Source of the DNA: a virus
DNA: 13,632 nt
Virus genome (UHGV): UHGV-1808101
Strand: one strand, 5' to 3'
Of this stretch, positions 8,883 to 10,568 are shown piece after piece. The notes below the pieces were generated by a model that saw nothing but the letters and a program-made list of their open reading frames with translations, did not search any database and had not been told where the DNA came from. A program made the translations under genes and the position numbers. The stretch's first letter is position 1; each line of letters starts with the position of its first letter.

Positions 8883-8907
8883 TACACGCCGCGAGCGTGT
8901 TTTTTAT
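8883..8907 (+). terminator. Rho-independent terminator in the nin region
   Basis: ACACGC-CGCGA-GCGTGT hairpin (6-bp stem) followed by TTTTTTATT. Confidence 0.5.
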
Positions 8908-9066
8908 TGTCGTATGCACGCGCACATCTGAATTATGGTGGGCTGTGTGGGGGCGGAGAGATCCGCGCCGGTCGGTTTCCCGGTTACGCCAACCCTGCAC
9001 AGTTCACCACCAGACGATTGGCGTCGTCGGTGGTGAGTTATTAAGAAACCACTCGAGGGCGTCATT

Positions 9067-9771
9067 ATGACAACTCAAATCTCTGTTGAAACTCTCTCCC
9101 CGATCACCCATAACCAGATTCCTGTTATTACCACCGAACTTTTGGCGCAGTTGTACGGTGCTGAAGTTAAGAACATTCAAAATAACTACGCCAGAAATGC
9201 TGAGCGCTTTATTGAAGGAAAGCATTTTTTCAAAGTGGCTGGCGATGCCCTGAAAAATTTGCGGGTAGCTTTAAACTACTCACAAAATTTGCAACCATCT
9301 TTAAGAGGGTTACAAATTTCCCCGAAAGCCCGCTCCCTCATCCTCTGGACAGAACGAGGCGCAGCCCGTCACGCCAAAATGCTAGAAACCGATCAGGCGT
9401 GGGATGTGTTCGAAAAACTGGAAGACTGCTATTTCAGCCAGTGCGAGAAAAATACTGGCAAACAAGAGAAGAAGCCCAACGGGCTTTCCGCAAAAGAAAC
9501 AGACAGCCTTGTATGGCTGTGGGATTATGCCAACCGCTCACTGGCATTGTTCCGTGAGTTGTATCCCGCATTAAAACTGATTCAGTCTGGCTATTCCGGC
9601 ATATGCCACGACTACGGCTATGAGTTCTCGTATATCATCGGGAGGGCGAGGGGCGTTTTAATTAATCACACGCGGGATATAGATATTTATGAGCCTGACG
9701 GGCCGACGAACCTTCTGGCATGGGAAAGGCTTAAGAACAAAGAGTTGCCGCCTTCACTGCATCGCTACTGA
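9067..9771 (+). CDS. ORF6N-domain-like phage protein (putative DNA-binding/antirepressor-like), 234 aa
   Basis: N-terminal segment [38 protein letters not shown] resembles the ORF6N/KilA-N-type domain as recalled; GAGGG upstream; inserted where lambda has ninF. Confidence 0.55.
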
Positions 9772-9790
9772 CAATTGACAACTTAACAAA

Positions 9791-9813
9791 CCCAGCCTCG
9801 GCTGGGTTTTTTA
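9791..9813 (+). terminator. Rho-independent terminator after the ORF6N gene
   Basis: CCCAGCC-TCG-GCTGGG hairpin followed by TTTTTTAT. Confidence 0.55.
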
Positions 9814-9839
9814 TTGCTGAATTTTCAATATGAGAGGAC

Positions 9840-10568
9840 ATGACAATGAATGAGCTGATAAATAGCAGCATCATCAAAATGACCAGCATTGAAATCGCTG
9901 AGTTGGTGGGGAGTCGTCCAGATAACGTAAAAATATCAATAGAGCGCCTGGCTAAATCTGGAGTTATTCAACTTCCTGCATTGCAGGTTTTCGAAAAAAT
10001 CAATAACTTAGGACTGCGCCGTAGTGTCGAGGCTTACGTCTTCGAAGGCGAACAAGGTAAGCGAGACAGCATTATTGTCGTCGCCCAATTGTCGCCGGAA
10101 TTCACCGCTCGTCTTGTTGACCGTTGGCGAGAGCTTGAAGAAACTGCGGTTAATATCCCCAAAACGCTACCAGAAGCGTTGCGCCTTGCTGCTGATCTTG
10201 CTGAGCAGAAAATGCAACTGGAAAACCAGCTCGCAATTGCCGCACCTAAAGTTGAGTTTGCCGATCGAGTTGGCGAGGCCAGCGGAATTTTGATTGGAAA
10301 CTATGCAAAGGTTGTTGGAATTGGTCCAAACAAACTGTTTGCGTGGATGCGCGATCACAAAATCCTTATTGCTTCAGGTGCCCGGCGCAATGTGCCAATG
10401 CAGGAATATATGGAGCGCGGCTATTTCACAGTGAAAGAAACAGCGGTCAACACAAATCACGGAATACAGATATCGTTCACCACAAAAATCACCGGGCGTG
10501 GTCAACAGTGGCTGACCAGAAAGCTGCTCGATAACGGAATGCTGAAAGTAACAGGGGAGGCTGCTTAA
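9840..10568 (+). CDS. Phage antirepressor, Rha-like N-terminal domain plus KilAC C-terminal domain, 242 aa
   Basis: N-terminal [24 protein letters not shown] resembles Rha; C-terminal half (…[44 protein letters not shown]…) resembles the KilAC/Ant C-terminal domain as recalled; GAGAGGA upstream. Confidence 0.75.

Follow-up and report, generated by a model that had tools for sequence, protein, structure and literature searches.

A predicted P1-style C4/IsrK RNA switch ahead of the antirepressor gene in the ant-roi block of a lambdoid prophage

Genes of the ninE-ninG interval

The window analysed here, a whole stretch of 13,632 nucleotides of the virus genome UHGV-1808101, carries a two-gene region, ant followed by roi, between NinE (8610-8792) and NinG (10568-11173), the flanks being assigned by domain search and annotation. 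In lambda, the gene at this interval is ninF, and the placement proposed in an earlier note on this DNA, between ninE and ninG at the ninF slot, is thereby borne out. Both open reading frames, 9067..9771 (234 aa) and 9840..10568 (242 aa), are present, and the features around them are collected in Table 1.

The module is the ordinary, already known ant-roi block of Shiga-toxin-type lambdoid prophages. The Stx phages VT2-Sakai, 2851, phi24B, CP-1639 and the PA phages share 92-94% nucleotide identity with it over the full 1.9 kb and have the same ninE-ant-roi-ninG order, with nothing materially different; against the annotated ant-roi regions of VT2-Sakai, CP-1639 and many other Stx phages, identity ranges from 92 to 100%. 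Matches to the ant-roi module were found in 478 phage records, and the order ninE-cassette-ant-roi was held in all 80 IMG/VR loci, as far as each contig extends. The phage studied here is nonetheless a non-Stx E. coli prophage, with TerB/DUF3927 genes after Q in the place of stx. Public annotations of the module list ant, roi, and a 57-aa "orf34", with the RNA genes described below absent.

Table 1. Features of the ninE-ninG interval, in window coordinates
Feature	Position	Strand	Description
Sigma-70 promoter (predicted)	8793..8822	+	-35 TTGACG 8793-8798, 18-nt spacer, -10 TATATT 8817-8822
IsrK-type leader / short sRNA	8829..8905	+	Rfam isrK RF01394, 75.5 bits (gathering 50)
Decoy site a1	8854-8860		UUGGCGU; loop of IsrK hairpin 2
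Decoy site b1	8869-8874		GAGACC; between IsrK hairpin 2 and the terminator
Terminator 1 (IsrK terminator/attenuator)	8884..8906	+	Stem ACACGC-CGCGA-GCGUGU plus U-run; part of the isrK model
C4-type antisense RNA	8931..9014	+	Rfam C4 RF01695, 66.7 bits (gathering 45)
33-codon ORF	8935..9036	+	AUG at the C4 5' end; frame and start of Gifsy-1 orf45
Site b'	8974-8979		GGUUUC; C4 hairpin-2 loop
Site a'	8986-8992		ACGCCAA; single strand of the C4 multiloop
a2 target site	9018..9024	+	UUGGCGU; identical to a1, complementary to a'
b2 target and ant SD	9045..9059	+	b2 GAAACC 9045-9050; SD GAGGG 9055-9059
ant	9067..9771	+	234-aa antirepressor; ORF6N N-domain, P22 Ant C-domain
Terminator 2	9788..9815	+	Strong, intrinsic; ends the ant unit; hairpin 9788-9809 plus T-run
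roi	9846..10568	+	240-aa KilAC-domain protein; 242 aa if from ATG 9840

The 234-aa product, which the earlier note had called ORF6N-like, was confirmed as such by the domain search that the note asked for (Pfam ORF6N, E 5e-20, 72 bits) and was found to carry in addition a P22_AR_C domain (PF10548, E 3e-24, 85 bits). It belongs to phrog_377, "anti-repressor Ant" (E 5.5e-83). Its last 104 residues are 81.7% identical to P22 Ant, and residues 1-133 are 64% identical to Gifsy-1 AnrP, the C-terminal halves of the latter pair being unrelated. As for the downstream gene, the KilAC half of its earlier description as a Rha/KilAC protein stands (ANT/KilAC, E 5e-32, 111 bits), whereas the Rha half is marginal (Phage_pRha, 20.9 bits against a Pfam gathering score of 29.9, E 5e-4). 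Roi is a member of phrog_63 (E 1.7e-94), with an N half that matches PHROG antirepressor and regulator families, and over 240 aa it shares 88% identity with the roi product of HK022, while its identity to the C-terminal parts of P1 Ant1 and P1 KilA is 56% and 68%, respectively. PHROGs labels Ant and Roi alike as "anti-repressor"; neither protein has a sequence relative in the PDB or an NCBIfam model. The start of roi is taken at ATG 9846, where PGAP places it on a 99.7% identical E. coli chromosome and where the Shine-Dalgarno spacing is better.

Terminator 2, between the two genes, folds at -16.1 kcal/mol (z -5.7), with none of 200 shuffles as stable. The ant-roi spacer that contains it is nearly invariant among the 74 IMG/VR loci with a readable junction, whereas its coding flanks diverge to 79% (C half of Ant) and 66% (N half of Roi). 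A promoter scan found no promoter-like site in front of roi. Since no terminator follows roi and its stop overlaps the ninG ATG (TAATG 10566-10570), the gene is grouped with ninG-Q, and terminator 2 probably insulates this roi-ninG-Q unit from the promoter described next.

The RNA leader of ant

The ~270 bases upstream of ant are, on the evidence of their sequence, a phage-P1-style antisense-RNA switch composed of an IsrK leader and a C4 RNA. The Rfam models c4-a1b1, isrK, and C4 all score above their gathering thresholds within 8816-9014, in the order known from P1; c4-a1b1 (RF03163) matches at 8816-8868 with 50.5 bits against 46.7.

The putative promoter of this cassette lies directly 3' of the ninE stop, matches the consensus at 10 of 12 positions, and has a predicted start at ~8829. 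In a comparison set of 35 related leaders (34 distinct sequences), its TTGAC and GCTATATT elements are invariant throughout, Gifsy-1 included despite the different gene upstream. In HK022, the first ninF codons coincide with the position of the cassette -35 (GTGATTGAC). The homologous PisrK of Gifsy-1 was demonstrated to be required for expression, with 280 versus 3 Miller units (PMC4825925).

Terminator 1 (hairpin 8884-8900 and T-run) is weak by folding, at -7.6 kcal/mol and z -2.3; its stem is nevertheless maintained by compensatory changes in related leaders (ACACGC/GCGUGU, AGACGC/GCGUCU, and AACCGC/GCGGUU). A stretch of 160 nt that includes the C4 RNA gene separates it from the ant ATG. 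Because the promoter and IsrK precede it and the C4 gene and target sites follow it, terminator 1 is an attenuator inside ant's own operon and not a barrier ahead of that operon. The statement that each gene is preceded by a terminator therefore holds for the two hairpins, both of which are where they had been placed, but it had missed the promoter, IsrK, C4, and the target sites around the first of them.

The C4 segment has a minimum free energy of -44.5 kcal/mol (z -4.2; 0/200 shuffles as stable), and all 27 of its internal pairs form in the 34 distinct sequences, seven of them having changed on both sides. The a' and b' sites that it exposes would meet their partners twice. Downstream, towards ant, the a'-a2 match of this phage is perfect over 7 nt and the b'-b2 match over 6 nt. 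Upstream, in IsrK, a1 is identical to a2, and one of the pairs between b1 and b' is G.U. Here, b2 ends 4 nt before the ant SD, which is left uncovered; the b2 of other leader classes extends over the SD or the AUG.

These sites co-vary across the 35 leaders, which fall into 5 a-classes and 7 b-classes. In every one of the 35, a1 equals a2 and is the reverse complement of a', perfect over 7-8 nt in five sequence classes. The a1:a' helix of 8 pairs, four of which have changed on both sides, is 100% paired in the 34 distinct sequences; as a control, shifting the partners by 1-3 columns lowers the pairing of the whole tested structure to 36-43%. For the b sites, the cognate b'-b1 and b'-b2 pairings have energies between -7.3 and -12.5 kcal/mol, and no other duplex in the same row of the cross-class matrices is more stable, although some are tied. 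Unconstrained RNAduplex on whole RNAs returned long meaningless duplexes and gave way to comparisons of loop versus region.

Two other assignments were tried and rejected. The invariant loop of IsrK hairpin 1 (GCAAAAUC) had been taken as a1 and the hairpin-2 site as b1, but this was overturned by the annotation of the P1 record, which assigns a' to the multiloop strand and b' to the loop of hairpin 2; the sites were relabelled on that account, and the true b1 was then located and co-varies as expected. No partner was found for the invariant hairpin-1 loop (GCAAAAUC). A hairpin at 9019-9064 (-23 kcal/mol), which would pair a2 with the ant SD and spacer, was likewise dropped; its outer stem, judged by eye from the alignment, is lost when the a2 class changes.

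The leader also contains a short open reading frame that begins in C4. Its AUG at 8935 is invariant in 35/35 leaders, and the frame has 8 codons at its shortest and at least 47 at its longest (lengths of 14, 27, and 31 also occur), with no shared protein sequence among the variants and no PHROG match; it is probably not a conserved protein. It ends 30 nt before ant, and an overlap with the start of the antirepressor occurs only in Gifsy-1. Translational coupling through this frame (Gifsy-1 orf45, VT2-Sakai orf34) was hence discarded as a conserved feature, its length and stop position being variable. There is no cistron between b2 and ant, the sole upstream ORF being the one that overlaps C4.

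Related systems

In the immI region of P1 and P7, the elements run promoter, a1, b1, C4, a2, b2, and antirepressor, which is the identical order to that found here. The P1 record annotates a2/b2 as "repression of icd ant translation", with b2 at -18..-11 of the icd start. P1 C4 is matured from a precursor by RNase P, and its repression involves Rho-dependent polarity. Citron and Schuster, comparing P1 with P7 in 1990, reportedly found that two short segments of C4 co-vary with their targets. The two systems differ in that icd is the first cistron in P1, whereas ant itself is the regulated first cistron here; in that P1 Ant1 is of the KilAC type, whereas the regulated Ant here is ORF6N plus P22_AR_C, with KilAC appearing only in roi after the terminator; and in that P1 is a plasmid prophage, while this cassette sits in a lambdoid nin region. 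A distinct Rho-independent attenuator, unlike in P1, would yield a discrete IsrK sRNA.

A second related system is the isrK-orf45-anrP-isrJ locus of Gifsy-1 in Salmonella (Hershko-Shalev et al. 2016, PMC4825925), where the isrK, c4-a1b1, and C4 matches occur in the same order as here. Its a-class is identical (UUGGCGU/ACGCCAA), whereas its b-class is CGGUGAU against GGUUUC, and two base pairs that were verified there by experiment, G28-C162 and G31-C159, correspond exactly to a1:a'. The Gifsy-1 locus, however, is found after Q, whereas the cassette here falls between ninE and roi; its AnrP, of 187 aa, has no P22_AR_C; orf45 overlaps anrP, whereas its equivalent here has 33 codons and falls short by 30 nt; and isrJ follows anrP (100 bits), with no isrJ match in our window at E <= 1. 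In Gifsy-1, PisrK drives anrP transcription, IsrK in trans raises anrP translation more than 100-fold, and the prophage is induced through AnrP (PMC4825925). The authors of that study described activation as a refolding of the mRNA that opens the orf45 ribosome-binding site, with translation coupled to anrP, and repression by a C4-like RNA lies outside what they demonstrated (PMC4825925). Co-expression of STnc1160 with IsrK strengthened, and did not weaken, growth arrest (PMC4825925). Both IsrK and STnc1160, an RNA located where C4 lies, show high transcription in lysogens of Gifsy-1 that have no lytic transcription (PMC7067206).

With P22, the module shares the C-terminal domain of Ant (81.7% over 104 aa) and, at immI, the general principle of an antirepressor controlled by antisense RNA, but it differs in having C4-type control and an ORF6N domain at the N-terminus of Ant, and an Rfam scan of the window gave no match to the sar RNA family. 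HK022 has a Roi 88% identical over 240 aa, likewise upstream of late-regulator genes, but retains ninF and has neither a C4/IsrK/ant cassette nor any Rfam match. Details on HK022 Roi as a DNA-binding lytic-growth factor are said to be given by Clerget and Boccard in 1996. The protein is also described as DNA-binding and implicated in lytic growth in PMC3430580.

These comparisons speak against the earlier proposal of a single insertion, because roi occurs without the cassette in HK022 (ninE-ninF-roi), while in Gifsy-1 the cassette lies downstream of Q and roi is absent. We therefore read the region as two separable modules in place of ninF, the cassette at 8793-9815 and then roi, and assign to this explanation, taken together with the mechanism set out below, a probability of about 0.75.

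Proposed mechanism and alternatives

The model we propose joins the sequence elements, homology, and coordinated variation observed here to what has been established on homologues elsewhere, namely promoter activity, a1:a' pairing, activation by IsrK, and the Ant phenotype; for this prophage itself, we infer the promoter, the RNA processing, and the repression. A CI-independent sigma-70 promoter would fire right after ninE, and most transcripts would end at the weak terminator 1 to give an IsrK RNA of ~77 nt with a1 and b1. Read-through transcripts would carry the tRNA-like C4, whose a'/b' would pair with a2/b2 upstream of the ant ribosome-binding site and, acting both in cis and in trans, keep the lysogen from making Ant. 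Since IsrK carries copies of both sites, it would compete for C4, or for the C4 segment of the long mRNA, and the balance between IsrK and C4 would thus set whether Ant is made. Control of ant would then be mainly post-transcriptional, by means of RNA, and the most likely effect of the switch is to hold ant silent in the lysogen. Once made, Ant would bind and inactivate the CI-type repressor and so speed derepression. Terminator 2 would stop the cassette promoter from driving roi-ninG-Q in the lysogen, polymerase modified by N and coming from pR would pass both terminators, and Roi, a KilAC protein akin to P1 Ant/KilA and HK022 Roi, would be expressed with ninG-Q. The earlier suggestion that this region has transcriptional control of its own, apart from the N-antiterminated nin operon, is supported, and genes for an N protein and an S24-type CI repressor (3651-4346) were found in the window. 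Several observations tell against the model: b2 stops short of the SD, one b1-b' pair is G.U, STnc1160 co-expressed with IsrK aggravated growth arrest in Gifsy-1, the leader ORF ends too early for the coupling described there, the S24-type CI can cleave itself, and no promoter turned up for roi. A LexA-controlled logic of the Gifsy gfoA type is unlikely for this antirepressor, since no LexA box matched from 8402 to 11091, around the cassette, and the total across the window was not above chance.

The alternative that survives best, although we consider it doubtful, is that one or both of Ant and Roi do not serve to inactivate the resident CI but act on other targets: Roi, as in HK022, would be a DNA-binding factor for lytic growth, and Ant would enhance induction or function in anti-defence or exclusion. 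The high identity of Roi to its HK022 counterpart agrees with such a role, and the resident CI is of the self-cleaving S24 type, able to do without an antirepressor. With regard to the cross-induction or superinfection-sensing role suggested in the earlier note, deletion of ant in phi24B left superinfection unaffected and had only a partial phenotype, lowering late-promoter output after induction (pR' output after norfloxacin was ~27-56% of wild type) (PMC3064807). Against this, the P22 antirepressor, with which the C-domain of Ant shares 82% identity, has been defined biochemically, the KilAC part of Roi is 56% identical to P1 Ant1, and AnrP does induce Gifsy-1 (PMC4825925).

It is unlikely that the mechanism described for Gifsy-1 applies here to the letter. 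Under that scheme, the long mRNA is kept silent by a1-a' pairing in cis until short IsrK, binding in trans, refolds it and frees the ribosome-binding site of the leader ORF, to whose translation that of ant is coupled; the C4-shaped segment would be only a structure of the mRNA and no trans-acting repressor. Mutational and compensatory evidence stands behind it in Gifsy-1 (PMC4825925), and the AUG at 8935 is kept in all 35 leaders. The coupling step, however, cannot be transferred unchanged, because the 33-codon leader ORF stops 30 nt short of ant and the overlapping stop is confined to Gifsy-1; moreover, a2 and b2 would be left without a role, although in each class they follow the changes of a' and b', and a stable processed RNA exists at the C4 position in Salmonella (PMC4825925, PMC7067206).

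Least probable, and improbable in itself, is a pair of antirepressor genes insulated by upstream terminators in the N-antiterminated nin operon, without an RNA regulator and expressed only by antiterminated pR transcription or private promoters: both terminators and both domain architectures are real and N is present, but a promoter lies between ninE and terminator 1, the 160 nt between that terminator and ant encode a C4 with co-varying sites, roi overlaps ninG with no terminator after it, and the Rfam matches and coordinated variation already contradict the idea.

Implications

Returning to the C4/IsrK switch as the preferred reading, a wider meaning may be offered only tentatively, namely that the antirepressor of lambdoid and Stx phages is gated by a P1-like C4/IsrK pair in mix-and-match classes, which would constitute a second, RNA-based layer of immunity. 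At least 5 a-classes and 7 b-classes occur among close relatives, and E. coli genomes hold up to six copies of the leader family; with C4 acting in trans and IsrK as an inbuilt decoy of its target sites, co-resident prophages of the same class would then silence each other's ant. If so, prophages of different classes would not cross-silence, which could shape which Stx prophages co-induce, and repression by C4, as described for P1, and activation by IsrK, as described for Gifsy-1, would be two halves of one switch. No paper stating such class-based C4/IsrK immunity for Stx phages was found in the literature searched. Should the classes indeed govern cross-talk between co-resident prophages, they would bear on the induction of Shiga-toxin phages.

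The RNA elements themselves are already catalogued by Rfam, and in this respect the finding is routine and of value mainly for annotation. In the VT2-Sakai record and in the PGAP annotation of E. coli SCU-104, 270 "empty" bases or a spurious 57-aa ORF stand over the promoter, the sRNA, and the antisense RNA. As the RNA elements are thus hidden in public records, tests of Ant-driven Stx induction should take the C4/IsrK switch and its class into consideration.

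RNA elements between ninE and ant

The 270 bases separating ninE from ant, which were skipped in the earlier note, contain matches to three Rfam families, all exceeding the gathering score, together with a sigma-70 promoter whose predicted transcription start (8829) coincides with position 1 of the isrK model. The a and b elements tabulated below are named according to the P1 nomenclature.

Features of the ant leader and their positions in the window
Feature	Position	Sequence or score	Location
Sigma-70 promoter	8793-8822	TTGACG, 18-nt spacer, TATATT	begins one base past ninE stop
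c4-a1b1	8816-8868	Rfam 50.5 bits	
isrK	8829-8905	Rfam 75.5 bits	
a1	8854-8860	UUGGCGU	loop of IsrK hairpin 2
b1	8869-8874	GAGACC	between IsrK hairpin 2 and terminator 1
C4 antisense RNA	8931-9014	Rfam 66.7 bits	
b'	8974-8979	GGUUUC	loop of C4 hairpin 2
a'	8986-8992	ACGCCAA	C4 multiloop strand
a2	9018-9024	UUGGCGU	3' of C4
b2	9045-9050	GAAACC	4 nt 5' of ant SD
ant SD	9055-9059	GAGGG	
ant AUG	9067		

The intrinsic terminators previously proposed to precede ant and roi were recovered as terminator-like hairpins at 8884-8900 (terminator 1; weak upon folding, -7.6 kcal/mol) and 9788-9809 (terminator 2; strong, -16.1 kcal/mol, z -5.7). Given the promoter at the end of ninE and the IsrK leader model, however, terminator 1 is that of the IsrK leader RNA and thus lies within ant's own transcription unit.

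Co-variation of the recognition sites

The leaders of related loci were compared as 34 distinct sequences, being 73-100% identical to the window. Five forms of the a-site were encountered (UUGGCGU, UUAGGAAC, UUUGCAC, UUAGCAC, and UUGGAAC), and in 35 of 35 sequences, Gifsy-1 included, a1 was identical to a2 and exactly complementary to a'. In the tool's alignment, the a1:a' helix comprises eight pairs and shows 100% pairing, with both partners altered at four of these; sliding the partners by one to three columns lowered the whole tested structure to 36-43% paired. The b-sites take seven forms, with the cognate b'-b1 and b'-b2 duplexes being the most stable or tied in every row of the cross-class matrices. 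The a and b classes also re-assort, one b occurring with different a and vice versa. This co-variation bears the signature of a functional antisense recognition system with two sites and exchangeable specificity.

The loop of IsrK hairpin 1, GCAAAAUC (8829-8848), did not vary among the 35 leaders, and P1 has almost the same sequence there (GCAAAUUC). No complementary partner was found for it in C4 or the ant leader, and it may possibly serve Hfq or another target.

Comparison with P1 and Gifsy-1

The P1 record presents the same series of promoters, a1, b1, c4 RNA, a2, and b2, followed by icd and ant1/ant2, with a2/b2 recorded as the sites where C4 represses icd-ant translation. Gifsy-1 likewise carries isrK, c4-a1b1, and C4 5' of AnrP, arranged as in the window, although its cassette is situated 3' of Q, and AnrP has the ORF6N half in common with Ant (64% identity) but lacks P22_AR_C. 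Transcription of anrP was demonstrated to be driven by PisrK, the long transcript being silent in translation and IsrK in trans activating its translation more than 100-fold (PMC4825925). The compensatory pairs verified in that study, G28-C162 and G31-C159 (PMC4825925), proved to be a1:a' pairs when placed on the Gifsy-1 sequence.

To account for activation in Gifsy-1, that study invoked orf45, an ORF of the leader with a stop codon overlapping anrP (PMC4825925). In the window, by contrast, the same AUG (8935) gives only 33 codons, ending 30 nt 5' of ant, and the orf45-frame ORF of other leader classes ranges from 8 to at least 47 codons with no conserved peptide; what is conserved, therefore, is the set of RNA sites and not the coupling. 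In Gifsy-1 lysogens, high expression of IsrK and of STnc1160, the RNA that occupies the C4 position, occurs in the absence of lytic transcription (PMC7067206), which fits a promoter active in the prophage state.

The encoded proteins and module boundaries

The earlier note's observation of an inserted gene pair was confirmed; its interpretation was partly right and overlooked the RNA switch. Its 234-aa ORF6N-like protein (9067-9771) indeed matches ORF6N (E 5e-20), as well as P22_AR_C (E 3e-24), and over its last 104 residues it shares 81.7% identity with the archetypal antirepressor, Ant of P22. Of the Rha/KilAC assignment, the KilAC 'ANT' domain held (ORF 9840/9846-10568, E 5e-32), but the Phage_pRha match fell under the Pfam threshold (20.9 vs 29.9 bits). 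Roi shares 88% identity with the product of HK022 roi; its identity to the C-terminal parts of P1 Ant1 and P1 KilA is 56% and 68%, respectively. Both proteins fall in antirepressor families of PHROGs, and the PDB contains no sequence relatives of either.

The pair does occupy the position of lambda ninF, between ninE and ninG. HK022 reads ninE-ninF-roi without the cassette or any Rfam match, Gifsy-1 carries the cassette without roi, and in one group of loci ninF is retained, lying 3' of the ant terminator and 5' of roi. At the left cassette junction, the -35 TTGAC is supplied by the ninF start GTGATTGAC; the ant-roi spacer is nearly invariant among related loci with a readable junction, while the coding sequence on either side diverges. 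The stop codon of roi overlaps the start of ninG, with Q next. In the lysogen, terminator 2 would shield roi-ninG-Q from the promoter of the cassette, which is CI-independent, and both terminators would be ignored by N-modified polymerase coming from pR.

In some related loci, namely L078 (1152-2675) and L069, a truncated AnrP-type ORF6N gene of 102 aa comes after the leader and, about 270 nt on, full-length ant; L071 has a similar leader match. The arrangement looks like a tandem recombination remnant, suggesting frequent exchange at the ORF6N domain.

Prior knowledge and distribution

Neither the kind of element nor its sequence is new. The 1.9-kb stretch shows 92-94% identity to CP-1639, VT2-Sakai, Stx2 II, the PA phages, and many Stx1a/Stx2a phages, in which the two genes bear the names ant and roi, and scanning IMG/VR with Ant as the query recovered 80 loci, all ninE-leader-ant-roi-ninG as far as the contigs reach. 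Of 5426 complete E. coli genomes, 2535 carry the leader family, and a genome may have as many as six copies. Three distant E. coli matches to the leader (H76, H78, H79; 70-74% identity) adjoin 'ash family protein' genes and are possibly P4-like elements with a related CI RNA/seqA system.

The C4 and c4-a1b1 motifs have been on record from phages since 2010 (PMC2864571), C4 and isrK were listed in Rfam scans of EDL933 (PMC5331693), and Ant and Roi in the Stx-phage ant-roi context have been treated in comparative papers (PMC3430580). Deletion of ant in phi24B left superinfection unchanged, with late-promoter output after norfloxacin at about 27-56% of wild type (PMC3064807). The literature searched contained no explicit statement of C4/IsrK control over Stx-phage ant and no description of a/b specificity classes; a modest upside would follow if RNA-class-specific cross-talk between co-resident prophages proves true.

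Genomic setting

The window corresponds to the early-right region of a lambdoid prophage of E. coli, being 99.7% identical throughout to the E. coli SCU-104 chromosome. The gene order runs cIII with an RNA thermometer; N and an S24/HTH CI repressor; cro, cII, O, P, and ren; ninB, a Dam methylase, and ninE; the ant-roi region; ninG and Q. The N antiterminator ORF is intact (127 aa, 1299-1682, minus strand; Pfam N_peptide E 2e-15), whereas PGAP reduces the SCU-104 locus to a 69-nt pseudogene fragment ('regulator', 1299-1367). Between cIII and N lies an Nmad5-family 'nucleotide modification associated' gene (614-1237, minus strand, E 1e-68).

Directly 3' of Q, a near-consensus promoter (11713-11742; TTGACA, 18-nt spacer, CATAAT; 11/12) is followed by a tRNA-like segment (11799-11868; Rfam tRNA 32.6 bits vs gathering 29; none by ARAGORN) and a closing terminator (11885-11904). 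The segment 11713-11904 resembles pR' followed by a short, terminated transcript (cf. lambda 6S, StxS) that includes a degenerate tRNA; Stx phages carry ileZ-argN-argO at this position. A TerB-family gene and DUF3927 follow (12042-12634), the same pair as tciA/tciB of the P1 record, in the place occupied by stx in Stx phages. Beyond them lie three copies of the sRNA family STnc100, at 12700-12905 (141 bits), 13183-13392 (166 bits), and, weakly, 12944-13117 (30 bits), and an identical terminator hairpin, AGCCCCTCTCCGGAGGGGCT, recurs at 12875-12894 and 13362-13381.
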